From NCBI GenBank assembly GCA_050692555.1, contig JBOGVS010000011.1, positions 8,241-72,240 on the forward strand: a stretch of DNA of 64,000 nt. Reading direction: 5' to 3'. Positions 14,955 to 54,244 of this stretch are shown here, piece after piece (position 1 is the first letter of the stretch; each line of letters starts with the position of its first letter). The translations under genes were made by a program, and so were the position numbers. The notes beneath the pieces are model-generated. The model searched no databases. It had not been told where the DNA came from and worked only from the letters and a program-made list of their open reading frames with translations. The stretch comes from Actinomycetota bacterium. GTDB lineage: Bacteria > Actinomycetota > UBA4738 > CALAEC01.

Positions 14955-15440
14955 TCACCGGGCCTCCTCGGGCTCGAAGCACTCGATGTCGGTGATGTGT
15001 CCCGACCGCTCGTCCCGCCAGCGAACCCGGACCCGCATCCCCGTTCGCATCGTGGATTCGTCGCCGGCGTCGACCGCGTGGAGCATGGCCGTGTCGGCGC
15101 CGTCCAGTCGAACGAGGGCCCAGGCGAACGGCCGGTCCAGTGGGTGCTTGGGCCGCGGTTCGGTGACCCACGCCCACGTGGTGACCTCTCCCGACGTTCC
15201 CACCTCGACGACGTCTCCGGTGGCCTCGCCGGTCTCCGGGTCGTACTCCGCGGGTGGGACCAGGACCTTGCCCGACGACGTCCGCACTCCCTCGATCCGG
15301 CCGTCCCGGAGCCCGGCCAGAAACCGGCCGATGACCGGCCCCACGCTGCGTTTATAGGGGTATTCGAGAACGTGAGGGGCGGAAAGAACCTCGGGATTCC
15401 CGGCAGCCTCCGGCATACGGAAAAGTAGAACACGTTCCAA
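14955..15440 (-). CDS. DUF35-like OB-fold protein (zinc ribbon cysteines degenerate)
   Basis: 161 aa; OB-fold C-terminal pattern GEVTTWAWV...GMRVRVRW but no CxxC pairs. It is the first gene after a KstR box. Confidence 0.6.
   Translation of the reverse strand: MERVLLFRMPEAAGNPEVLSAPHVLEYPYKRSVGPVIGRFLAGLRDGRIEGVRTSSGKVLVPPAEYDPETGEATGDVVEVGTSGEVTTWAWVTEPRPKHPLDRPFAWALVRLDGADTAMLHAVDAGDESTMRTGMRVRVRWRDERSGHITDIECFEPEEAR
15426..15439. promoter_or_regulatory. KstR-type operator TAGAACACGTTCCA
   Basis: 14-bp palindrome matching TnnAACnnGTTnnA, in the divergent promoter between the DUF35/ltp operon and the cyclase-STAND gene. Confidence 0.65.
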
Positions 15441-15489
15441 TCTTCGCCGTCAAGCACGCCGTAGGTGGCGATTGGGCATACTCCTCTAG

Positions 15490-18400
15490 TTGGAGGGGCA
15501 TCGCTTCACTTGGCGAGCCCAGGGCGTCATGCAGGCAAAGCCGGGTTCCGAAGCGACCTCCGAAGCCTCCATCCGCACGTTCCTGATCGCGGATATCCGG
15601 GGGTACACGCTCTTCACGGCGGAACGTGGAGATGAAGCCGCCGCCGAGCTGGCCACCAGGTTCGCCGCCGTGGCCAGGGAGGGCGTGGAATCCCGGGGCG
15701 GAACAGTCATCGAGCTGCGAGGGGACGAGGCGCTGGCGGTCTTCGACTCGGCCCGGCAGGCCATCCGGACGGCGATCGAGCTCCAGAGGCGGTTCGTGGA
15801 AGAGACGGTGGCCGATCCGAGGATGCCGCTTCCCGTCGGGATAGGGCTCGATGCCGGAGAAGCCGTGGCCGTCGAGGACGGGTATCGGGGCGGGGCGCTC
15901 AACCTGGCGGCACGACTCTGTTCCCTGGCAGCGCCCGCGGAGATCCTGGCAAGCAGGGAAGTGGTCCACCTGGCTCGGAAGGTGGACGGCGTCACGTCCG
16001 TCGATCGGGGATCGGTCCGACTGAAGGGCCTCACAGATCCGGTGCACGTCATCAGGCTGAGGGCCGAGGCCGAGGATGCGGCGGAGGACACGGCGTTCCG
16101 CCGGGCCCTGGGACCCTCCGCAGCCCAGCTCGCTCCAGTTGTTCCCGGTGTCATGGTTCCCAACCCGTACAAGGGCCTCCGTCCGTTCGAGGAGGGGGAC
16201 GCGCCCGACTTCTTCGGGCGGGAGGCCCTCACCGAGCAGCTGGTGGAGCGCTTGGGCGAGACGCGCTTCCTGGCGGTGGTCGGCCCCAGCGGGAGCGGGA
16301 AATCCTCCGTCGTGCGGGCCGGGCTGATCCCGGCCCTTCGGCGCGGGGCCCTCCCCGGTTCGGGTGATTGGCTGATCGTGGAGATGTTCCCCGGTGCTCA
16401 CCCGCTCGCTGAGCTGGAAGCCGGTCTGCTGCGGGTCGCGGTGAATCCACCAAGCAGTCTGATCGAGCAACTGGAGCGCGATGACCATGGGCTGCTCCGC
16501 GCAGCCAAACGGGTCCTGCCCGCCGGTGGCTCGGAGCTCGTGCTGCTCATCGACCAGTTCGAGGAGGTCTTCACGCTGGTCGAGGACGATGCGGCGCGGA
16601 CGCATTTCCTCGAGAGCCTCGAAGCGGCGGTCACCGAGCCCCACGGCCGCCTCCGCGTGGTCACCACACTGCGCGCCGACTTCTACGACCGACCCCTGCT
16701 CTACCGGGGCTTCGCCGAGCTGCTCCGCTCGCGGGTGGAGGCCGTGGTCCCGCTGTCGCCCGAGGAGCTGGAGCGGGCTATCTCGGGGCCGGCCAAACGC
16801 GTGGACATGAGGCTCGAGCACGGGCTGGTGGCCCAGATGCTGGCCGAGGTGGCCGACGAGCCCGGGGCCCTGCCTCTCTTGCAGTACGCGCTGACCGAGC
16901 TGTTCGAGCGTCGGGAGGACAGCGTCCTCAGCCTGGAGGCGTACCGGGCGATCGGGGGTGTCTCGGGAGCTCTGGGTCGCCGGGCCGAAGAGCTGTACGG
17001 AGACCTGGACGCGGAAGGCCGGGAGGCCGCCCGGCAGCTGTTCCTGCGCCTGGTGGCCCTGGGCGAGGGGACGGAGGACACCCGCCGCCCGGTGCTGCGG
17101 TCCGAACTCGTCTCCCTGGAGGTCGACCAGCAGGCCATGGCGGCCGTGATCGACTCGTTCGGAGCCTCGCGCCTGCTCTCCTTCGACCGGGACTCCCGCA
17201 CCGGGGCTCCAACGGTCGAGGTGGCCCACGAGGCCCTGCTCACGGCATGGGGCCGGCTCCGCCGGTGGATCGACGAGGCCCGCGAGGACCTCCGGACCGA
17301 GCGCCGCCTGGCCCTCGCCGCTCGTGAGTGGCTCGACGCGGGGCGCGACCGTTCCTTCCTGGCGAGCGGGTCGCGGCTGGAGCAGTTCGAGACGTTGCGG
17401 CAGAGCGGCGCCATCTCGATCACTCCTGAGGAGCGCGCCTTCGTGGAGGCCTCCCTTGCCGAGAGGGACCGCCGTCGGACGGAGGAGGAGGCCAGGCAGG
17501 CCCGGGAACATGCCCTGGAGCGCCGCTCCGTCCGCCGGCTTCGTGCCTTCGTGGCCCTCCTCGGGGCGGCGGTCCTGATCGCCAGCGGTCTCACGGTTTT
17601 CGCCTTCACCCAGCAGGAGCGGGCCGAGCGGGAGGGGACGGTCGCCGCCGCTCGAGAGCTCGCCGCCGCCGCGGTGGCCAACCTCGACGCAGACCCGGAA
17701 CGGAGCATCCTCCTGGCACTGGAAGCCATCGAGCGGACCCGATCCAGGGACGGAACCGTCCTCCCCGAAGCCGAGGAGGCCTTGCACCGCGCCGTGGTGG
17801 CCTCCCGGATCGTGTTGAGCGTGCCCGGAGTCGGTGGCTGGCTGGACTGGAGCCCGGACGGGACCAGGTTCGTGACCGAGGGCCCGGAGGAGACCGGGAT
17901 CGTCGACATCAGAAACGCGGAGACGGGCGAGTCGATGCTGTCGTTCACCGGACACCAGATGGATGTCAACGGGGTTACCTTCAGCAGCGATGGTTCCATG
18001 CTGGCCACCACCGGAGACGACGGCGCCGCCAAGATCTGGGATCCCCAGTCAGGAGAAGAGCTGGGGAGCGTTCAGGGGCCCGAGGGCGCGGTGCTGGGGC
18101 CCTCGTTCAGTCCGGACGGCTCTCTGGCCGCGGCGGCCTGGCTCGACGACGGCACGGTGCGGGTGTGGGACCCGGCCACGGGGCGGACGGTCCATGAGCT
18201 CCATCCCGTGCCGGGTCCATTCAGGACGTCCTTCAGCCCGGATGGCCGGCGGCTGGCGATCGCCGCGCTCGAGCCCCCCGTGGCCGTGGTCGTGGACGTC
18301 GCCTCCGGCAGGGAGGTCTTCACCCTGGAGGGCCACGACTTCGAGGTCCATGACGTCGATTGGAGCCCGGACGGCCGATGGATCGCCACGTCCAGCGTCG

Positions 18401-19701
18401 ACGCCACCGTCCGCATCTGGGACGCCCGGATCGGGAGCCTGCGGTTCAGCCTGTTCCACGACGGTCCGATCGGAGACGCGGACTGGAGCCCGGACTCCAC
18501 CCGCCTGGTGACCGGGGCGGGCGATGGAACCGCGACTGTGTGGCAGGTCACCGAAGCCGGGGGAAGGGAGCTGCTCTCCCTCTCGGCCCAGGACACCAGG
18601 GCCGGTATCTCGGGGGTGGCCTTCTCGCCCGAAGGTGATCGGGTGATGGCCGGGGACTCGGGGATCACGGCGGTGCAGGTCTGGGACGTGAGCCGGGCCG
18701 GCGACGCGGAGTGGGTGAACGTGCCCGGCGACCCCGCCTGGGTCTCCAGCGTGGCTTTCACCTCCTCGGGACGCCAACTGGTCGCCAGCAGTGAGGATGG
18801 GTCGGTATCGGTCTGGGACGCGGAGACAGGGCGAAGGGTCCGAACGTTCCAGGCTCACCAGTCTCCGTCCGACCCCGACTCCGTCTACGCCCTCGACGTG
18901 ACTGCGGACGACAGACTGATCGCCACCGCCGGAACCGACCAGACAGCCAGGGTGTCCGATGCGGCCACGGGGGGCGAGGTGTTCACCGTTGCATTCGAGG
19001 GATCGGTTGACGACGTCCACTGGAGTCCGGACGGCCGGCTGCTGGCCATGGCGGCGTTCGACGAGGGCGTGGCCAGGATCGTCGACCGATCCGGGGCGGA
19101 GATCGCCGTCCTGCGAGAGGACTCCGGCCTCGGGATCATCCACGTCCAGTTCAGTCCGGACGGTCGCCTGCTGGCCACGGCCAGCCTGTGGACGGGCCGG
19201 CCCGATCCGACGGCCCAGCGGGTGAAGATCTGGGACTGGCGACGGGGGAAGGTCGTTCGGGCCATTCCCGTCGTTGCCGAAGGCATGGCCTTCGATCCGA
19301 GCGGCCAACGGATCGCCATCGCCCACGGAGGCTTGGCCGGGATCTGGGATCTCCAGAGCGGGCGGAAGGGGGCGACCTTCGCCGGCCACGAGGGGGCACT
19401 CTGGGATGTCGCGTTCAGCCCCGATGGTTCCGTCATCGCCACCGCCGGCTTCGACAACACGGTGCGGCTCTGGGACTCGGAGTCCGGAGTCCAGCTCCTG
19501 GTACTCCGCGGACACCAGTTCATCGTGGGGCGGCTGGCCTTCAGCCCGGACGGTTCGAAGCTCGCTTCCGGGGCCGCCGATGGAACGGTGCGCGTGTGGG
19601 CCCTCGACCTCGACGACCTCATCGAGATCGCCAGGGGAGAGGTGACCCGGGGCCTTACCGACGCGGAGTGCCGACAGTATCTGCACGGGCCTTGTCCCTA
19701 G
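15490..19701 (+). CDS. multidomain signalling protein: class III nucleotide cyclase (CHD) – P-loop STAND/AAA ATPase – transmembrane helix – WD40 beta-propeller
   Basis: 1403 aa. CHD motifs FLIADIRGYT, RGDEALAVF, GALNLAARL. Walker A GPSGSGKSS and Walker B LVLLIDQFEE. TM helix LRAFVALLGAAVLIASGLTVFAF preceded by RRSVRR. More than 10 WD-like repeats (…WD, SFSPDG, VRVWD…). The alternative start M at 15529 (MQAKPG) is possible. Confidence 0.85.
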   Translation: MEGHRFTWRAQGVMQAKPGSEATSEASIRTFLIADIRGYTLFTAERGDEAAAELATRFAAVAREGVESRGGTVIELRGDEALAVFDSARQAIRTAIELQRRFVEETVADPRMPLPVGIGLDAGEAVAVEDGYRGGALNLAARLCSLAAPAEILASREVVHLARKVDGVTSVDRGSVRLKGLTDPVHVIRLRAEAEDAAEDTAFRRALGPSAAQLAPVVPGVMVPNPYKGLRPFEEGDAPDFFGREALTEQLVERLGETRFLAVVGPSGSGKSSVVRAGLIPALRRGALPGSGDWLIVEMFPGAHPLAELEAGLLRVAVNPPSSLIEQLERDDHGLLRAAKRVLPAGGSELVLLIDQFEEVFTLVEDDAARTHFLESLEAAVTEPHGRLRVVTTLRADFYDRPLLYRGFAELLRSRVEAVVPLSPEELERAISGPAKRVDMRLEHGLVAQMLAEVADEPGALPLLQYALTELFERREDSVLSLEAYRAIGGVSGALGRRAEELYGDLDAEGREAARQLFLRLVALGEGTEDTRRPVLRSELVSLEVDQQAMAAVIDSFGASRLLSFDRDSRTGAPTVEVAHEALLTAWGRLRRWIDEAREDLRTERRLALAAREWLDAGRDRSFLASGSRLEQFETLRQSGAISITPEERAFVEASLAERDRRRTEEEARQAREHALERRSVRRLRAFVALLGAAVLIASGLTVFAFTQQERAEREGTVAAARELAAAAVANLDADPERSILLALEAIERTRSRDGTVLPEAEEALHRAVVASRIVLSVPGVGGWLDWSPDGTRFVTEGPEETGIVDIRNAETGESMLSFTGHQMDVNGVTFSSDGSMLATTGDDGAAKIWDPQSGEELGSVQGPEGAVLGPSFSPDGSLAAAAWLDDGTVRVWDPATGRTVHELHPVPGPFRTSFSPDGRRLAIAALEPPVAVVVDVASGREVFTLEGHDFEVHDVDWSPDGRWIATSSVDATVRIWDARIGSLRFSLFHDGPIGDADWSPDSTRLVTGAGDGTATVWQVTEAGGRELLSLSAQDTRAGISGVAFSPEGDRVMAGDSGITAVQVWDVSRAGDAEWVNVPGDPAWVSSVAFTSSGRQLVASSEDGSVSVWDAETGRRVRTFQAHQSPSDPDSVYALDVTADDRLIATAGTDQTARVSDAATGGEVFTVAFEGSVDDVHWSPDGRLLAMAAFDEGVARIVDRSGAEIAVLREDSGLGIIHVQFSPDGRLLATASLWTGRPDPTAQRVKIWDWRRGKVVRAIPVVAEGMAFDPSGQRIAIAHGGLAGIWDLQSGRKGATFAGHEGALWDVAFSPDGSVIATAGFDNTVRLWDSESGVQLLVLRGHQFIVGRLAFSPDGSKLASGAADGTVRVWALDLDDLIEIARGEVTRGLTDAECRQYLHGPCP

Positions 19702-19713
19702 GCCCGTAAGGGC

Positions 19714-21255
19714 TCAGATGGCCCGCTCCCGGCCCTTCCAGTACGGGTCGCGGAGCACCCGCTTGTACAGCTTGCCGTTTGGATCGCGGGGCATCTCGTC
19801 GACGAAGTCGATCGACCGGGGAACCTTGTACTTGGCGGCGTGCTCGGCGGTGAACGCCAGCAGCTTTTCCTCCATCTCGGGGCCGGCCCGGCCCTTGTCC
19901 CGCAGCTCGATCGCCGCTTTCACCTCCTCGCCCCAGTCCTCGTTCGGGATCCCGAACACCGCCGCGTCCGCGATGTCCGAGTGGGTCAGGAGCACCGCCT
20001 CGATCTCGGCGGGATAGATGTTCACGCCGCCGGAGATGATCATGTCCGCCTTTCGGTCCGCCAGGAACAGGAACCCGTCTTCGTCGAGGTATCCGACGTC
20101 TCCGACCGTGAAGAACCCCTCGCTCCAGCTCTCCTCGGTCTTGGCCTTGTCCTTGTAGTACTCGAAGGTGTAGTCGGCCATCTTGATCCACACCGTTCCG
20201 GGCTCGTTCGGTGACACGGGCTTCCCGTCGTCGTCGAGGATGCGGATCTCCGAGATCGGCCAGGGCTTCCCCACCGTTCCCGGCTTCTGCTTCCACTCCT
20301 CCGGGGTCGCCAACGTTCCCCCGCCCTCGGTGGCCGCGTAGTACTCGTAGATCACCGGGCCCCACCATTCGAGCATCCGCCGCTTCACGTCGACCGGGCA
20401 CGGGGCGGCGCTGTGAACGATGTGGCGGAGGGAAGAGACGGCTGCCTTCGACCGGGCCTCCTCGGGCAGCGCCAGAAGCCGGTGGAACTGGGTGGGAACC
20501 ATGTGGGAGGTGGTGACTTTGTACCGCTCGATCCGCTCCAGGGTTCCCTCCGGGGTCCACTTGTCCATGAGCACCACCGGATGCCCCATGTGCAGCGAGT
20601 CGGAGGCGAACGTGAGCACGGCCGTGTGATACAGGGGGGAGACCACCAGGTGGACGTTGTCCTTGTTCGGCTCGATGCTGAACAGCATCAGGAACGCGGC
20701 GTGCATGTCGGCCACGATGTCCACGTCGAGGTCCACGGTGTCCCGGCGCACTCCCTTCGGCTTCCCCGTGGTCCCCGCGGTGTAGTTCATCACCCCGCCC
20801 GGAGCCCGCTCCTCCGGCCGCGTACCGGGCTGGCCCTCTTTCAGCTCCGCGTACGGGCGGAACCCCTCGATGGTGCCCACCGCGAACCGGGCCTGTTCCG
20901 GGAAGCCGATCCCGTCTGCGGCCTGACGTCCTGCCTCCCCGTATCGCTCGGAGCACACGAACGCCTCGGCCTCGCAGTCCTTGATGATGTAGCCGATCTC
21001 CTCGGCGGTGAGGTGGTAGTTGATCGGGGTGAGGCGCCACCCCGACTGGAGGCAAGCGAGGTACAGCTCCACGAACTCGGCGCCGTTCGGCAACAGGGCC
21101 GCCACCACGGAATCACGCTTCAGCCCCTGGCCCCGGAGTCCATGCGCCAGCCGGTTGCTCTCCTCGAACAGCTCCCCCGCCGAGACCTCGCGGCCCTCCG
21201 GCTCCACCAGGGCCAGACGGGAGGCGTCCTGCTCAGCGAGCGTCCAGAACGACAT
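19714..21255 (-). CDS. fadD: acyl-CoA synthetase (AMP-binding; FadD19-like steroid/long-chain-fatty-acid CoA ligase)
   Basis: 513 aa; YTAGTTGKPKGV, GDVGYLDEDGFLFLADRKADMIISGGVNIYPAEIE, PNGKLYK. Confidence 0.9.
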   Translation of the reverse strand: MSFWTLAEQDASRLALVEPEGREVSAGELFEESNRLAHGLRGQGLKRDSVVAALLPNGAEFVELYLACLQSGWRLTPINYHLTAEEIGYIIKDCEAEAFVCSERYGEAGRQAADGIGFPEQARFAVGTIEGFRPYAELKEGQPGTRPEERAPGGVMNYTAGTTGKPKGVRRDTVDLDVDIVADMHAAFLMLFSIEPNKDNVHLVVSPLYHTAVLTFASDSLHMGHPVVLMDKWTPEGTLERIERYKVTTSHMVPTQFHRLLALPEEARSKAAVSSLRHIVHSAAPCPVDVKRRMLEWWGPVIYEYYAATEGGGTLATPEEWKQKPGTVGKPWPISEIRILDDDGKPVSPNEPGTVWIKMADYTFEYYKDKAKTEESWSEGFFTVGDVGYLDEDGFLFLADRKADMIISGGVNIYPAEIEAVLLTHSDIADAAVFGIPNEDWGEEVKAAIELRDKGRAGPEMEEKLLAFTAEHAAKYKVPRSIDFVDEMPRDPNGKLYKRVLRDPYWKGRERAI

Positions 21256-21285
21256 GCCCCACCTCCTTCGACCTCCACTCGAAAT

Positions 21286-21299
21286 TAGAACACGTTCCT
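21286..21299. promoter_or_regulatory. KstR-type operator TAGAACACGTTCCT
   Basis: Palindrome in the fadD/adh divergent intergenic region. Confidence 0.65.
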
Positions 21300-21331
21300 G
21301 TTTCTGGACGCAACTCGGGGAGGCGGTCCAT

Positions 21332-21345
21332 CAGAACGTGTTCTA
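21332..21345. promoter_or_regulatory. KstR-type operator CAGAACGTGTTCTA
   Basis: Second palindrome 32 bp from the first, just upstream of the adh start. Confidence 0.65.
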
Positions 21346-21355
21346 GTATTCGGCC

Positions 21356-22435
21356 ATGCGGGCCGCCGTGCTCCCGGCGCTGAATGAGTCCCTAGTGATC
21401 CGGGACGACGCCGAGATCGTGGGCCCCGACCCCGAGCAGGTCCGGATCCGGGTGGCGGCCAGCGGTGTATGCCACTCGGATATCCATCTCCAGACCGGCT
21501 CCCTCCCCCATCCCCTGCCGTGCGTCCCCGGCCATGAGGGCGCCGGCGAGGTCGTCGAGGTCGGCGAGGCCGTCTCCAGCGTCGCGGTGGGCGACCACGT
21601 GATCGTGTCGTGGGTCCCGCCGTGTGGGGACTGCGCGTTCTGCCTCGGTGGGCAGCCGAACCTGTGCGAGGCCCACATGCTGGCCGCGGTGGGGACCCCG
21701 GGGTTCACCGTGGGAGGAGAACCGATGTTCGGCTATGCGGGCACCGGGACGTTCGCCGAGGAGGTTGTGGTCCGGGCGGAGTCCGCCATCCCCATCCCCA
21801 AGGACGTCCCGTTCGACGTGGCATCCCTGATCGGGTGCGGGGTGATGACCGGCGCCGGCGCGGCACTCAACACCGCGAGGGTCCGCCCGGGCTCCTCGGT
21901 CGCGGTGTTCGGGTGCGGGGGCGTGGGGATCAGCATCATCCAGGGAGCCCGGATCGCCGGCGCCGCGGACATCGCGGCGATCGACGTGGTCGATGGCAAG
22001 CTCGACATGGCCCGCAAGTTCGGGGCGACCCACGCCGGCACCCCGTCGGAGGTGTCCGGCCTGTCCCAGGAGATCACCGAGGGGCGGGGGTTCGACTACG
22101 CCTTCGAGGCGGTGGGCACACCGGAGACCATCCGGGCGGCGTGGGACGCCACCCGCCGCGGCGGGACCACCGTGGTCGTCGGAGCCGGACGCATGGACGC
22201 CATGGTCCCGTTCAGCGCGTTCGAGCTCTTCTACATGGAGCGAGCGCTGAAGGGCTCCTGGTACGGCTCGGCGAACGTGCGCACGGACTTTCACCGCCTG
22301 CTGCGGTTCTGGCGCCAGGGGAAGCTCGATCTCGAGGGGATGATCACCCGCCGGTTCGACCTGGCCGACGTGAACGAAGCCCTGGCCGCGATGGAACGCG
22401 GCGAGGTGGTCCGCTCGATCATCGAGTTCTCCTAG
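21356..22435 (+). CDS. zinc-dependent alcohol dehydrogenase (MDR family)
   Basis: 359 aa; GVCHSDIH, GHEGAG, C-x2-C-x2-C structural zinc site, GCGGVG Rossmann motif. Confidence 0.9.
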   Translation: MRAAVLPALNESLVIRDDAEIVGPDPEQVRIRVAASGVCHSDIHLQTGSLPHPLPCVPGHEGAGEVVEVGEAVSSVAVGDHVIVSWVPPCGDCAFCLGGQPNLCEAHMLAAVGTPGFTVGGEPMFGYAGTGTFAEEVVVRAESAIPIPKDVPFDVASLIGCGVMTGAGAALNTARVRPGSSVAVFGCGGVGISIIQGARIAGAADIAAIDVVDGKLDMARKFGATHAGTPSEVSGLSQEITEGRGFDYAFEAVGTPETIRAAWDATRRGGTTVVVGAGRMDAMVPFSAFELFYMERALKGSWYGSANVRTDFHRLLRFWRQGKLDLEGMITRRFDLADVNEALAAMERGEVVRSIIEFS

Positions 22436-22595
22436 CCCTAGCTCCAACAACGCCGGAAGGCAGCGCGTAGGGGGGCTTGGTCTGCCTGGTACCAGGTACG
22501 GTGAGTAGCCGGGGGACCGGCGGGACACTCGTACTTGGTACGAGCCAAAGGGACCGGTCGTACCAAGTACCGGCCACCGGAGAACCCCCTCGGAC
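22436..22595. repeat. structured convergent intergenic region with three GTAC-core hairpins and a GGGAC-prefixed tandem unit
   Basis: cctggtaccagg (perfect 12-nt palindrome); gggacACTCGTACttgGTACGAG; gggacCGGTCGTACcaaGTACCGG. Confidence 0.5.
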
Positions 22596-23795
22596 CTAGG
22601 CGCGTTCCGGGGTGAATCGCACGGGCATGTGCTTCAGCCCGTTGATGAAGTTCGACCGCAGCCGAGGAACGGGGCCCGCCAGCTCGATGTCCGGCAGCCG
22701 CCGGAGCAACTCCTCGAACATCACCCGGATCTCCAACCGTGCCAGGTTGGCTCCCAGGCAGAAGTGCGGGCCGCCGCCACCGAACCCGAGATGCTCGTTG
22801 GGGGTCCTGCCCACGTCGAATCGGTCGGGCTGGGGGAAGACCTCCTCGTCCCGGTTCCCCGAGATGTACCACAGCAGGACCTTCTGGCCTTCCTTGATCG
22901 GGACGCCTCGGACCTCGGTGTCCTTGGTGGCCGTCCGCCGGAAGTGCATGACCGGCGTGGCGGTGCGAAGCATCTCCTCGACGGTGAGCGGGAGCAGGTC
23001 GGGCTGGGCCAGAAGGCGCTCCTTCTCTTCGGGGTTCTGAGCCAGGGAGTGCATCCCATGAGAGATCAGGTTGCGGGTGGTCTCGTTCCCCGCCACCGCC
23101 AGGAGCAGGAGGAACACGTCGATCTCCAGGTCGGACAGGCCCTGGCTGTCGATCTCCGCCTCGACCAGCGCGGTCACCAGATCCTCACGGCGCTCGCCCC
23201 GTCGCTCCTTCCCCAGCCCGTCCCAGTACTCGTACATCTCGAACGCGGCTGCGGTAGCGACGTCGATGGAGTTCCCGTACTCGGGATCGTCGAGGCCGAT
23301 CATCTGGTTGCTCCAGTGGAAGATCTTGTGCCGGTCCTCGTCGGGAACCCCGATCATCTCGGTGATCACCTGGAGCGGGAGCTCGGCGGCGATGTCCGTG
23401 ACGAAGTCGCACTCCCCCTTCCCGGCCACGCCGTCGATGATCTTGGTGGCGATCTCCCGGACGTGGGGCTCGATGTTGCCCACCCTCCGCGGGGTGAACC
23501 CCGTGCGGACCAGCATCCGGAGCTTGGTGTGCTTGGGGGGATCCATGTTGACCATCATCAGCTCCACCCCGCCGGCGGGATCGTCGATGTTCGTGCCCCG
23601 TGCGGAAGAGAACGTCTCCCAGTTGCGGGACGCGCTCACCACGTCGTCGTACTTGGTGAGGTTCCAGAATCCCGGCCCGTTCTCCTGGGGGTTGAAGTAC
23701 ACGGGCTCGTTCTCCCGGAGCCACCGAAAGTCCTCGAGCGGAACTGAGTCGACGAATCGACCGGGGTCGTAGAAGTCGATGCTGGCCGTCTTCAT
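22596..23795 (-). CDS. cytochrome P450 (CYP125/CYP142-like steroid C26 monooxygenase type)
   Basis: Heme loop FGGGGPHFCLGANLA. AELPLQVITEMIGVPDEDR closely resembles CYP125-family sequence. The start is taken at MKTASIDFYDP, because the longer ORF start would overlap the KstR box. Confidence 0.85.
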   Translation of the reverse strand: MKTASIDFYDPGRFVDSVPLEDFRWLRENEPVYFNPQENGPGFWNLTKYDDVVSASRNWETFSSARGTNIDDPAGGVELMMVNMDPPKHTKLRMLVRTGFTPRRVGNIEPHVREIATKIIDGVAGKGECDFVTDIAAELPLQVITEMIGVPDEDRHKIFHWSNQMIGLDDPEYGNSIDVATAAAFEMYEYWDGLGKERRGERREDLVTALVEAEIDSQGLSDLEIDVFLLLLAVAGNETTRNLISHGMHSLAQNPEEKERLLAQPDLLPLTVEEMLRTATPVMHFRRTATKDTEVRGVPIKEGQKVLLWYISGNRDEEVFPQPDRFDVGRTPNEHLGFGGGGPHFCLGANLARLEIRVMFEELLRRLPDIELAGPVPRLRSNFINGLKHMPVRFTPERA

Positions 23796-36133: not shown

Positions 36134-36757
36134 ATGGCGGAAGCGAACAGGCTCACCCCCAAACAGGAAGCCCGGCGCCGGCGGGTCATCGAGGCCGCCG
36201 CTCAGCTGGCCTCCGAGGGCGGGTACGACGCCGTGCAGATGCGCGACGTGGCCACTCGAGCCGACGTGGCCCTGGGCACCGTGTACCGGTACTTCTCCTC
36301 CAAGGACCAGCTCCTGGTGGAGTGCCTGTGGCAGGTGGCCCACCAGCTCCAACAGGACCTGGCCGGGCGGCCACCCAAGGGAGAGTCCACCGCCGACCGG
36401 GTGGTGGAGGTCATCCGCCGAGCCACCCGGGCCCTGGAAGCCGATCCCAAGGTCGCCTCGGCGCTGGTGACCGCGCTCGCGTCGCTGTCGTCGGAGGACC
36501 CCGCCGGCCTGGAATCCGCACAGGCGGTCTACGCCATCGTCAGCGACATGTTCACCGAGGCCATGGACGGCGGCGACCACCCCGACCGGGAAGCGGTGAT
36601 CCGCACGCTCGGCCACGTGTGGCTGGCCGCCCTGATCACCTGGGTCCGCGGCTGGTCGACCAAGAACGAGATGTGGAGGGACCTGGAGGCCGCGGTTCGG
36701 CTGCTGCTCCCGGCGGGGGAGAAGGCCACCCGCTCCCTGGCCAAGGCCCGGGCGTGA
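36134..36757 (+). CDS. kstR: TetR-family transcriptional regulator, KstR-like
   Basis: HTH region AAAQLASEGGYDAVQMRDVATRADVALGTVYRYFSSKDQLLVE, as remembered for KstR-type repressors. The symbol is inferred from this and from the surrounding KstR-type boxes. Confidence 0.7.
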   Translation: MAEANRLTPKQEARRRRVIEAAAQLASEGGYDAVQMRDVATRADVALGTVYRYFSSKDQLLVECLWQVAHQLQQDLAGRPPKGESTADRVVEVIRRATRALEADPKVASALVTALASLSSEDPAGLESAQAVYAIVSDMFTEAMDGGDHPDREAVIRTLGHVWLAALITWVRGWSTKNEMWRDLEAAVRLLLPAGEKATRSLAKARA

Positions 36758-52435: not shown

Positions 52436-52878
52436 GCCCCGGAGAGGAGACTGATGTGACCGAGACATCGGAGCGACACGGCCGAGTAGCTGCTGTGCCC
52501 GGCTGGGGAGCGCTTCAGGATGCGGCGTTGATCCTGCTCTCCCCGGTCCTGTTCCCCGTCGCGATCTTCGTCGGGATCCTCCCCCTCCTGATCCACAGTT
52601 GGGTGGTCGGTGTCATCCTGCTGTCGGCGGCGAGGGCGTGGACGGCCGGGCAGAAGCTCATCGGAACGTTCCTGTCCGCCGTCTCCCTGTTCGCCTTCAT
52701 GATGGTCAACGTCCAGGCCTCCGTCGGACCGGTGGCCGCCGTCGGCATCCTGCTGGTCGTCACGGGGATGATGATGGTCCCGGGAATCGTGGGGGTCCTC
52801 TACCTGTCGAGGAGGGGGCTCCCTCGTTCGACTTCCTCAGGGCTTCGAGGACCTTCACCGACTTCGCGAACCCCTTGA
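52432..52878 (+). CDS. small membrane protein (hypothetical). ATGA-coupled to the upstream gene
   Basis: ~148 aa, 3–4 TM helices. The 3' end overlaps the convergent cyclase gene by ~119 nt, so the extent is uncertain. Confidence 0.35.
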   Translation: MSPGEETDVTETSERHGRVAAVPGWGALQDAALILLSPVLFPVAIFVGILPLLIHSWVVGVILLSAARAWTAGQKLIGTFLSAVSLFAFMMVNVQASVGPVAAVGILLVVTGMMMVPGIVGVLYLSRRGLPRSTSSGLRGPSPTSRTP

Positions 52879-54055
52879 GCTCGAGCTCGCCAACCGCGGT
52901 GAACGGGACGCCGGGGACCGCCGCCGCCTCGGCGACGCGCTCGCTCACGAACACCTGCCCGGCGCCCGCACTCCCGGCGATCCGCGAGGCGAGGTTCACG
53001 GTCCTCCCGAAATAGTCTCCCCCGTGGGCCACCACTGGACCCGCGGCCACCCCCACGTGCGCGGGGGGGAGACCCGAATCCGGCACCTCCTCCACCATCT
53101 CCAGCGTCGAGGCCACCGCGCCGGCCGAGTCCCGGAAGTGGAACATCACGCCGTCGCCGAGCCACTTCACCGGAGCGCCCCCATGGCGCCGGGACGACCG
53201 TTCGACAAGCTTTCCAAGTGACACGGCCAGCTCGGCGGCCGCCTCGTCGCCTCGCTCCTCGGTCAGACGGGTGTAGCCCACCAGGTCCAGGAAGACCATG
53301 GCAGGCACCCGTTCCGGGCCGGTGAGGACACCGGCCTCCTCGAGCCCCGTTTCGATGTTCTCGACCAGATGCTCGGTCCACACCAGCTCCTGCTGCCGGC
53401 GGTATCCGGCCATCAGGGCTCGATCCACGAGCACGTTCCACTCCTCGGCCATCCGTGCGGCTTGCTCGGTCGCCCGCGGCCGGCCCATCCCGGCCTGGAG
53501 CGCGGGCATCTCGAACCGGGCGTGATAGGCCTCGGTCTCCGACATGACGGCCTTCGACAGCCCCTGGGCGTGGGCTCGGGCGACCCGGGTCAACCAGGCC
53601 TCATCGAGCACCCCGGTTGCGATCGCATGACGGACCAGAGGAAGGATCTCGAGCTCGTCCTCCCGGATCCGCTCGTCGGGGTCCATGCGCGCGAAGCCGT
53701 AGGCCTGGAGAACGGTCCGGAGGAGCTCGAAGGGGACGCCGGCTTCCCTGCACACTTCGCGATAGGTGCGGTCCGAGCGCTGAGCCCACCTCCGGAAGGC
53801 GGGAGCCTCCAGGAACCCAAAGGACAACCGGCCCTGCTCGATGGCTCGGCCGATCCCGTCCATGGGGAGTCCGGCCCGCTCACACGCCTTGGCCAGCCTC
53901 ACCTTCTGCACGTCGCTGGGGAGGAACGGGTGCGAGTCCTCTCGCGGCACCAGGATCCCAAGGGCCACCATCCGCTCGAGCTCGTCCTCGGTGGCGCCGG
54001 TCCGCTCCGCCAGCGCCGCGGCGGAGAGTCCCTGGATCGTTCCTTCGTCGGCCAT
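52760..54055 (-). CDS. MerR-like HTH – class III adenylate/guanylate cyclase (CHD) fusion protein
   Basis: N-terminal HTH LSAAALAERTGATEDELERMVALGILV. C-terminal CHD motifs MVFLDLVGYT, WLGDGVMFHF, GRTVNLASRIAG. The alternative start at 54103 adds 16 aa. Confidence 0.8.
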   Translation of the reverse strand: MADEGTIQGLSAAALAERTGATEDELERMVALGILVPREDSHPFLPSDVQKVRLAKACERAGLPMDGIGRAIEQGRLSFGFLEAPAFRRWAQRSDRTYREVCREAGVPFELLRTVLQAYGFARMDPDERIREDELEILPLVRHAIATGVLDEAWLTRVARAHAQGLSKAVMSETEAYHARFEMPALQAGMGRPRATEQAARMAEEWNVLVDRALMAGYRRQQELVWTEHLVENIETGLEEAGVLTGPERVPAMVFLDLVGYTRLTEERGDEAAAELAVSLGKLVERSSRRHGGAPVKWLGDGVMFHFRDSAGAVASTLEMVEEVPDSGLPPAHVGVAAGPVVAHGGDYFGRTVNLASRIAGSAGAGQVFVSERVAEAAAVPGVPFTAVGELELKGFAKSVKVLEALRKSNEGAPSSTGRGPPRFPGPSSSP

Positions 54056-54244
54056 GCCGCCGCTATTCTGCCCGGCCGGTCGACCGGTGGCGGTCCGGAG
54101 CAAGCTATGCCGCCGGAGGAACGGAGTCGGGCCGCTGCCCTCGGCGGAGTGACCGGCGGTTCCTTATCCTCGGCGACGTGGACCGCTCGGTCGACGCCAT
54201 CCTGCGCTGCTTCCGGCGCGAACAGACCCGAGGGAGGTAACCGA

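Follow-up and report, generated by a model that had tools for sequence, protein, structure and literature searches.

A class III cyclase–nSTAND1–WD40 protein with a predicted single membrane span, encoded in a KstR-type gene cluster of an Actinomycetota bacterium

Introduction

What kind of signalling protein would join a nucleotidyl cyclase, a STAND NTPase and a WD40 sensor on one chain, which nucleotide would it make, and why would its gene lie among genes of lipid and steroid catabolism? These questions are raised by a 64,000-nucleotide stretch of DNA from an Actinomycetota bacterium (GTDB lineage UBA4738; CALAEC01; assembly GCA_050692555.1, contig JBOGVS010000011.1, positions 8,241 to 72,240; hereafter the window), in which one long gene is transcribed divergently from a DUF35-ltp operon across a short intergenic region that contains a KstR-type box. 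The active sites of class III cyclases are built at the interface of a dimer, the only active form of these enzymes; STAND NTPases switch by nucleotide-dependent oligomerisation, and STAND/NLR proteins are regarded as cytosolic sensors. An earlier sequence-only reading of the window had proposed a membrane receptor of 1403 residues that could couple an external cue to the synthesis of cyclic AMP (cAMP), is placed to be co-regulated with steroid catabolism and has a domain order unusual among actinobacterial cyclase–ATPase proteins.

Here, we find that the gene is genuine and that its product, a predicted single-pass membrane protein joining cyclase, NTPase and WD40 sensor, is not the only one of its architecture. 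It is best described as a variant of two known kinds, the cyclase–STAND proteins and the nSTAND1–WD40 proteins. The explanation that we favour, and to which we give a somewhat better than even chance of being right, is that of a single-pass type II receptor of the nSTAND1 branch, which senses the outside of the cell and makes a cyclic nucleotide when it oligomerises, and whose gene was inserted into a KstR-type cluster.

Results

A cyclase, an nSTAND1 NTPase and WD40 blades on one polypeptide

The open reading frame at 15490..19701 (+) has a G+C content at third codon positions of 0.86, a value typical of coding sequence in the window, whose overall G+C content is ~70%. Although the reading frame is real, the length of 1403 residues proposed for its product is that of the maximal frame from TTG 15490. 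We take ATG 15529 as the conserved start, giving 1390 aa, because more than 100 homologues have lengths of 1385-1395 aa, because the gene caller picked the equivalent ATG in a near-identical contig (L001), and because the ATGCAG start is kept in a locus at 82% identity (L009), where the DNA immediately upstream of it has diverged. The TTG start was dropped on the strength of the homologue lengths and the L009 alignment.

The product has, from N- to C-terminus, a class III cyclase, an nSTAND1 NTPase, a 22-residue hydrophobic helix, a short helical linker and WD40 blades, in agreement with the order set out previously (Table 1). The protein has the tripartite layout of STAND/NLR proteins, in which an output domain, a nucleotide-binding oligomerisation domain (NOD) and a C-terminal repeat sensor share one polypeptide, and departs from the usual form of that layout in having a transmembrane (TM) helix between NOD and sensor. 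The match to PF20703 spans profile positions 1-378 of 379 with both Walker motifs intact, and the key residues of GPSGSGKSS and LVLLIDQFEE, the motifs by which a P-loop NTPase had been recognised, proved to be invariant. In an AlphaFold 2 (AF2) model of aa 1-720 (predicted local distance difference test score, pLDDT, 75.7), a continuous helix runs from aa 633 to 719, beginning with the charged stalk that follows the NTPase.

A conserved hydrophobic segment predicts an outside WD40 sensor

The protein's only strongly hydrophobic segment, AFVALLGAAVLIASGLTVFAFT, is drawn by AF2 as part of this unpacked continuous helix. A hydrophobic segment occupies the same place in 120/120 close homologues, preceded in each by ERRSxRRLR, and about 140/149 representatives taken from a search with aa 200-720 (best 150, 50%-identity clusters) have a single such segment. 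Most of the exceptions that have no such segment are seemingly short or fragmentary (e.g. P0141, P0170, P0200, P0265), and none was detected in a few longer representatives (P0125, P0195, P0204, P0220, P0268) either. Across about 260 sequences the uncharged stretch holds a fixed position with a Kyte-Doolittle value of 2.0-3.1; it spans 20-23 residues and lies a median of 421 aa past Walker A. What is conserved is its hydrophobic composition and not its sequence, a pattern that a helix facing lipid would be expected to show.

Lys and Arg are more abundant on the N-terminal flank in 100/119 close homologues and in 129/140 representatives, in keeping with the single TM helix with positive-inside charges that had been described earlier. 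Since nucleotides of the cytoplasm are required by both cyclase and NTPase, the WD40 part would lie outside if the helix does span the membrane. An additional, weak hint in the same direction comes from cysteine parity: exactly two Cys lie past the TM helix in 112/119 homologues, and the counts past the helix are mostly even in the wider family. The N-in/C-out topology that we infer from hydrophobicity, charge bias and Cys parity upholds the earlier prediction of an extracytoplasmic WD40 part.

An AF2 model of aa 660-1390 (pLDDT 92.9; predicted template modelling score, pTM, 0.87) has helices at aa 661-717, 723-741 and 746-758, followed by 56 strands and two C-terminal helices. The strands make up 14 blades, where at least ten had been anticipated, and these probably form two seven-bladed propellers. 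The Pfam WD40 match has E = 9e-79; a WD40 start at aa 846, taken from the Pfam matches, was replaced by ~aa 761 from the structure model. The best PDB structure match of the WD40 model is Nostoc 2ymu (31% identity), and the tandem propellers of Apaf-1 and Aip1 were matched too. Beyond the propeller, the C-terminal tail LTDAECRQYLHGPCP (aa 1376-1390; 19654-19698) is 75% conserved, above the level of the propeller itself, and C1381 and C1389, the sole Cys after the membrane helix, may form a disulfide or a metal site.

The WD40 region is the most variable part of the protein, and the cyclase and nSTAND1 are under stronger constraint than the middle and late blades. Homologue identity to the query is 81% in the cyclase, 77% in nSTAND1 and 73-77% over the helix, the linker and the first blades; from blade 3 to blade 13 it drops to 28-57%, is lowest at aa 1101-1250, and goes up again at the C-terminal tail (the region labels are approximate, and 50-residue windows are preferable). 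Compared with the near-identical strain represented by L001, whose flanking DNA diverges by ~1%, 53/62 amino acid differences fall within aa 863-1387, concentrated at aa 1137-1164, with one codon indel, and DNA divergence is 5-15% in the WD40-coding part (window 18200-19800). As divergence rises similarly in patches of neighbouring genes (21000-21400 and 22400-22600), recombination is as likely a cause as selection for WD40 divergence, and the pattern suggests that the divergent patches are recombination tracts.

The cyclase carries a Glu/Gly specificity pair

Pfam Guanylate_cyc (PF00211) matches aa 17-167 at 22.3 bits, barely over the 21.9 cutoff. When the N-terminal region was compared with PDB sequences using phmmer, it matched 3mr7 (E = 4e-14) and Ma1120 (E = 4e-13), and the AF2 cyclase superposed on Ma1120 with a template modelling (TM) score of 0.93 and a root-mean-square deviation of 1.5 Å. 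The model further matches Rv1264, Cya2, Rv1900c and CyaC; Foldseek gave E = 3e-10 for Cya2 (2w01) and E = 2e-11 for the Ma1120 KDA-to-EGY mutant (5d0g). Across 110 aligned full-length homologues the metal-binding Asp pair (D22, D66) and the Asn/Arg pair (N125, R129) are invariant, so that the catalytic residues are as intact as had been claimed.

The residues that specify the base give a different picture from the one proposed. Because the phmmer alignment to Ma1120 runs over 159 residues without gaps, residues can be mapped exactly: E62 corresponds to K101, G118 to D157, N125 to A164 and A128 to A167. Adenylyl cyclases keep Lys and Asp at the base-specifying positions, guanylyl cyclases have Glu in place of the Lys, and the bacterial guanylyl cyclase Cya2 has an E-G pair (PMC4215837). 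In the family studied here, Glu is found at position 62 in 107/110 and Gly at position 118 in 110/110 homologues, which is the Cya2-type pair and not the Lys/Asp (or Lys/Thr) pair that specifies adenine. The Tyr that enhances GTP turnover in Cya2-type enzymes (Ma1120 position 167) is replaced by an invariant Ala128.

A second cyclase gene in the window, at 52763-54163 (-), is Rv1264-like (Ad_Cy_reg + Guanylate_cyc) and keeps the canonical Lys/Asp pair in its motifs KWLGDG and GGDYFGRTVNLASR; the cyclase domains of the two genes are 33.5% identical. The proposal of cAMP synthesis does not sit well with the replacement of Lys/Asp by Glu/Gly, a pair that the second cyclase of the window does not have. 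Its specificity pair gives the cyclase of the receptor the look of a guanylyl rather than an adenylyl enzyme, and from these residues one would not expect cAMP by default. With Glu/Gly at the base-specifying positions, cyclic GMP (cGMP) or a cGMP/cAMP mixture is a more likely product than cAMP alone.

One chassis carries kinase, transcription-factor and cyclase heads

Over 100 clusters, defined at the 90% identity level, matched 99-100% of the query at 58-96% identity in a search with the full-length protein. The members of these clusters are of ~1390 aa, bear the source annotation ‘WD40 repeat protein/class 3 adenylate cyclase’ and, where named, come from metagenome-assembled genomes (MAGs) of Actinomycetota. 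The same search also lists proteins of ~1710 aa with a Ser/Thr kinase and BTAD in place of the cyclase, and others with SARP heads. An exhaustive search with nSTAND1 plus TM helix matched 54,107 representatives with E <= 1e-3, a number that fell to 21,873 under the stricter limit of E <= 1e-30. The earlier remark that such proteins do not usually end in TM and WD40 modules is fair when measured against characterised mycobacterial proteins, but more than 100 clusters in the databases share this exact architecture, and with a chassis that matches tens of thousands of representatives it is not rare.

To classify the heads, regions upstream of Walker A in the top matches were grouped by coverage-based clustering and examples were scanned with Pfam. 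Pkinase heads form the majority (105/142), Guanylate_cyc heads account for 9/142, and further heads consist of Trans_reg_C + BTAD, HTH_3/HTH_31, GerE and combinations of head types. Single-linkage clustering of the N-terminal regions was dropped, as shared BTAD and kinase domains merged all groups. The heads found on the chassis are signalling and transcription outputs, not toxins. Some proteins carry several at once: P0135 (2056 aa) has a Glu/Gly-type cyclase, SARP/BTAD and a Ser/Thr kinase before nSTAND1-TM-WD40, and P0194 (1700 aa) has a Lys-type cyclase and a kinase on the same chassis.

A literature search found no described TM-STAND-WD40 or cyclase-nSTAND1 protein, returning only the definition of nSTAND1 and general STAND surveys. 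Among the matches listed in a single-protein search of genome contigs, the only one was an unrelated Mesorhizobium cyclase.

A KstR-type regulon surrounds the gene

The motif TnnAACnnGTTnnA occurs three times in the window, against 0.09 expected by chance. With up to three mismatches it has 12 matches on the two strands, where 1.43 are expected, and these include eight distinct sites beside gene starts, all eight within about 30 nt of a start codon (Table 1). Two divergent catabolic gene pairs have two boxes each, one by each start, and the divergent pair formed by the kstR-like gene and an acyl-CoA dehydrogenase (ACAD) gene shares a single box. The product of the kstR-like gene scores 147.8 bits against NF033703, under the cutoff of 280, with the next TetR family at 54.8; the boxes are probably read by this protein. 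Curated cutoffs are passed by the lipid-transfer protein and by the hydratase. Judged from these matches, a real KstR-type lipid/steroid catabolic regulon extends over at least 30 kb of the window.

The box between the receptor gene and the DUF35 gene is an exact match to the motif, and the distance of 50–100 bp given earlier is correct, since the TTG is 50 nt and the ATG 89 nt away from it; on its other side it is 9 nt from the DUF35 start (15416). From its position the box most probably serves the DUF35-ltp operon, and KstR control of the cyclase gene is possible.

At its 3' end the receptor gene converges on an acyl-CoA ligase gene, with stop codons 12 nt apart (19702-19713), and no terminator-like hairpin was detected between them. 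Scans for sigma-70 promoters and terminators in the intergenic region and at the 3' end returned nothing, a result that is uninformative for an actinobacterium of 70% GC.

Table 1. Features of the receptor gene and of the surrounding KstR-type cluster (positions in the window; nSTAND1, helix and blade limits as predicted)
Feature	Position	Strand	Basis or remark
Cyclase-nSTAND1-TM-WD40 gene	15529..19701	+	1390 aa plus stop; maximal reading frame from TTG 15490
Class III nucleotidyl cyclase domain, aa 15-180	15571..16068	+	D22, D66, N125, R129; specificity pair E62/G118
nSTAND1 NTPase module, aa 213-608	16165..17352	+	PF20703, 415 bits, E = 6e-124
Walker A, aa 252-260, GPSGSGKSS	16282-16308	+	G252-S260 invariant
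Walker B, aa 337-346, LVLLIDQFEE	16537-16566	+	D342-E346 invariant
Arg/Glu-rich cytoplasmic stalk helix (predicted), aa 633-672, ending ERRSVRRLR	17425..17544	+	AF2; flank conserved
Single predicted TM helix, aa 673-694, AFVALLGAAVLIASGLTVFAFT	17545..17610	+	Kyte-Doolittle 2.35
Post-membrane helical linker, aa 695-760	17611..17808	+	AF2 helices; homologue identity 73-77%
14 WD40 blades, aa ~761-1359	17809..19605	+	56 strands in AF2 model
Conserved C-terminal helices and Cys pair C1381, C1389	19606..19698	+	both Cys >=90% conserved
DUF35/OB_ChsH2 gene, divergent neighbour	14955..15416	-	first of DUF35-DUF35-ltp-ltp-ACAD operon
KstR-type operator TAGAACACGTTCCA	15426-15439	.	in 112-nt divergent intergenic region; exact match to TnnAACnnGTTnnA; near DUF35 start
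KstR-type box	21286		near acyl-CoA ligase start
KstR-type box	21332		near Zn-dependent alcohol dehydrogenase start
KstR-type box	23830		near P450 start
KstR-type box	23881		near EchA19-like hydratase start
KstR-type box	27857		near another ligase-like gene
KstR-type box	36099		shared by an ACAD and the kstR-like TetR gene
KstR-type box	45969		near one further gene
KstR-like TetR regulator gene	36134-36757	+	NF033703 KstR best NCBIfam match

The position looks like an insertion

We compared the genomic contexts of homologues. The locus of the 96%-identical homologue (L001) has the same neighbours and an identical intergenic region, and is hence uninformative. Homologues at 81, 78, 71, 66 and 65% identity lie among unrelated genes, which include other cyclase-STAND-TPR genes, glyoxalases, a transposase, GmrSD and CopCD, and no KstR box was found upstream of any of these five.

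In the reverse approach, loci of relatives of the DUF35 protein were compared (L009, L010, L011 and L012). The L012 locus (78% identity) has the window's gene order and orientation: enoyl-CoA hydratase (ECH), P450, P450, alcohol dehydrogenase (ADH), ligase, DUF35, DUF35, ltp, ltp, ACAD, short-chain dehydrogenase/reductase, ACAD and a ChsH2-like gene. There, the gap between ligase and DUF35 is only 18 nt and holds no cyclase gene, and KstR boxes are present only in the ECH/P450 and ADH/ligase intergenic regions. The cyclase gene is likewise absent from the DUF35 loci L010 and L011. In L009, from an NCBI MAG (GCA_036833435.1) whose DUF35 protein is 88% identical, a divergent cyclase-nSTAND1 gene is present, 82% identical over the 651 aa that precede the contig end. 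Its box lies 8 nt from DUF35, and when the two intergenic regions are aligned, no long stretch other than the box with its GGAAAAG flank is conserved.

Thus the neighbourhood is found again only in a near-identical strain and, at 82% identity, in one relative. Five other homologues do not share it, and the functional tie to steroid catabolism that had been suggested is not borne out by these comparisons. The link looks lineage-specific, and the location looks like an insertion rather than a conserved partnership. The simplest reading is that the receptor gene was inserted antisense between ligase and DUF35-ltp in an ancestor of the window and L009 lineages. Such an insertion would have split a ligase-DUF35-ltp operon, so that DUF35-ltp would have needed a KstR-controlled promoter of its own, of which the box would be a part.

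Other multidomain cyclases lie within a few kb of several homologues (L004 4476-7109, L007 13548-16167 and L003 20821-23955), with compositions such as Guanylate_cyc + NB-ARC/AAA + HTH_77 + TPR and Guanylate_cyc + SBP_bac_5/NHL-like; from their frequency these genomes appear rich in cyclase-based signalling. GmrSD-type restriction genes or transposase/integrase genes adjoin some homologues (L006 1-1640; L005 2579-4753; L007 539-724), which hints that the receptor gene travels with mobile or variable regions.

Discussion

In the receptor that we propose, the tandem WD40 propeller and the short helical linker would lie outside the cytoplasmic membrane, and one long helix would cross it and continue as a charged stalk into the cytoplasmic nSTAND1 module. 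Binding of a ligand or surface by the propellers outside the cell would lead to nucleotide-dependent oligomerisation of nSTAND1, which would bring cyclases together as head-to-tail dimers and so turn on cyclic nucleotide synthesis. Beyond the identification of the domains we infer every step of this scheme; a proximity-driven model is the most economical because a single TM helix transmits proximity more easily than a conformational change. The same logic could apply to kinase heads, through trans-autophosphorylation, and to SARP or helix-turn-helix (HTH) heads, through cooperative DNA binding.

Several known systems share parts of this design. The mycobacterial proteins of the Rv0386 / Rv1358 / Rv2488c type consist of a class III cyclase, a STAND ATPase, TPR repeats and a LuxR HTH. 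Like them, the receptor is actinobacterial and begins with a class III cyclase that precedes a STAND-type P-loop NTPase and repeats, and Rv0386-like genes (Guanylate_cyc + NB-ARC/AAA_16 + TPR) lie near homologues in L004 and L007. Unlike them, its NTPase is nSTAND1 and not NB-ARC/AAA_16, and it has a TM helix, a WD40 part predicted to lie outside, no HTH and a Glu/Gly pair. Neither TPR nor GerE appears among the 25 best-scoring of its 52 Pfam matches, where WD40 families dominate. A second parallel is PknD of M. tuberculosis, a receptor Ser/Thr kinase with a TM helix and an extracellular NHL beta-propeller. In both, the output is cytoplasmic, one TM helix crosses the membrane and a beta-propeller sensor lies outside (predicted in our case), ligand-driven dimerisation is plausible for both, and most members of the nSTAND1-TM-WD40 chassis have a Ser/Thr kinase head. 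PknD differs in that no 400-residue STAND NTPase stands between output and membrane and in that its propeller is NHL, not WD40.

Apaf-1 (3sfz) and Nostoc Npun_R6612 (2ymu) likewise have tandem WD40 propellers C-terminal to a STAND NTPase, but these are cytosolic proteins with no TM segment. With Cya2 (2w01) and the Ma1120 KDA-to-EGY mutant (5d0g) the cyclase shares the class III fold, the Glu/Gly pair and an intact Asn/Arg pair; it differs from Cya2 in having Ala128 where Cya2 has its Tyr that enhances guanylyl cyclase activity, and neither Cya2 nor Ma1120 has a STAND module fused to it. The nSTAND1 proteins of conflict systems (Kaur et al. 2021, PMC8195603) and those described as targets of diversity-generating retroelements (PMC10907252) share PF20703 and the logic of output, NTPase and sensor. 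The examples given in the portions of these two papers that we draw on have FGS/C-type lectin sensors and EAD, TIR, caspase, trypsin or kinase heads, and those portions mention no TM helix that links the NTPase to WD40 and no nSTAND1 protein with a cyclase as its head.

A number of points weigh against the receptor as drawn here, and several of them lead to alternative explanations. Our literature search found no experimentally studied member of the nSTAND1-TM-WD40 family. The topology is read from three sequence features, namely hydrophobicity, a bias in charge and the parity of Cys counts, and among close homologues the bias in charge is modest (median K/R 6 versus 4). Were the hydrophobic segment not to span the membrane, the whole protein, WD40 part included, would be cytoplasmic like a classical STAND/NLR protein, as indeed WD40-STAND proteins such as Apaf-1 are, itself one of the structural matches. 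We consider this highly improbable in view of the uniform length, hydrophobicity and position of the stretch in ~260 sequences, its ERRSxRRLR flank, its appearance as an isolated helix in the model, and the conservation of its composition but not of its sequence. The identity of the product is a closer matter, since the Glu/Gly pair is no guarantee of GTP preference. In Ma1120, the K101E/D157G exchange raised guanylyl cyclase activity, to the best level among the double mutants, and the enzyme still had a higher kcat/Km for ATP than for GTP (PMC4215837); moreover, the Tyr that favours GTP in Cya2 is here Ala128. A protein of the same architecture and mechanism might therefore be an adenylyl cyclase that makes cAMP despite its Glu/Gly pair, an outcome with which the rarity of bacterial guanylyl cyclases, as indicated by the reference list of PMC4215837, would agree. 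Set against this, Glu at the Lys position is a hallmark of guanylyl cyclases, K101E alone lowered the adenylyl cyclase activity of Ma1120 by 92% at pH 7.5 (PMC4215837), the pair is invariant or nearly so across 110 homologues, and a Lys/Asp cyclase coexists in the window; we rate the cAMP alternative as a serious one that is nonetheless unlikely.

The retention in L009 of both the divergent arrangement and the KstR box, at 82% protein identity, is compatible with shared regulation and is a point against the explanation that we favour. The receptor could then be a member of the KstR regulon that is derepressed together with steroid catabolism and makes cAMP on an external cue, coupling that cue to sterol use; the perfect box in the shared 112-nt intergenic region, the KstR-like regulator and seven further boxes in the window, and the precedent of the kstR-like/ACAD pair with its one shared box would all fit. 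This coupling seems improbable to us. The box lies much closer to the DUF35 start than to the cyclase ATG, the other two divergent catabolic pairs have a box for each gene, L012 has the same cluster with neither the gene nor a box before DUF35, the five homologues at 65-81% identity occur in unrelated contexts with no upstream box, and the specificity residues are not Lys/Asp. About as improbable, in our estimation, is a role in immunity, which is brought to mind by the definition of nSTAND1 in the context of conflict systems (PMC8195603). An NLR-like sensor of this kind would recognise an invader or non-self through its WD40 part, and the cyclase would make a Pycsar-like alarm nucleotide for a separate effector. 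The description of nSTAND1 in counter-invader systems (PMC8195603), the order of effector, NOD and repeats, the variability of the WD40 part (including its 53/62 share of the substitutions against the near-identical strain), the changing genomic contexts with GmrSD and transposase neighbours, and weak matches to PycC hidden Markov models (38 bits) speak for it. However, with PADLOC the NTPase region gave only weak, short mad3/mad8 matches (~20 bits) and none of Avs/bNACHT type, and the sensor had no match at E <= 0.01. The cyclase resembles enzymes of the Ma1120/Rv1264 type (50-56 bits) more than it does PycC, the other heads borne by the chassis are signalling and transcription domains and not toxins, and an extracytoplasmic sensor would miss cytoplasmic phage proteins. 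A Pycsar system pairs a PycC-type cyclase with an adjacent effector; here the PycC match is weak, the neighbours are catabolic, and no neighbouring effector is conserved across seven contexts.

We therefore return to the outside-sensing receptor of the nSTAND1 branch. A bolder extension of it, which we offer tentatively and hold to be rather unlikely as a whole, is that these proteins form an unstudied, transmembrane class of NLR-like receptors in which an extracellular WD40 double propeller sets STAND oligomerisation through one helix, that the cyclase-headed branch of more than 100 clusters consists of guanylyl cyclases, with cGMP a regular messenger in these uncultured Actinomycetota, and that the gene studied here may in addition have been captured by KstR.

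The best reading of the steroid-gene neighbourhood is that the gene was inserted into a cluster under KstR control; the neighbourhood should not be taken as evidence of a sterol-sensing pathway. If the receptor reading is true, a large family with a TM helix fixed between NTPase and WD40 would extend the STAND switch to signals from outside the cell and would show kinase, transcription-factor or cyclase outputs under the control of the same chassis. Guanylyl cyclases are scarce in bacteria, and the conserved Glu/Gly cyclase family would be a candidate source of cGMP in Actinomycetota.

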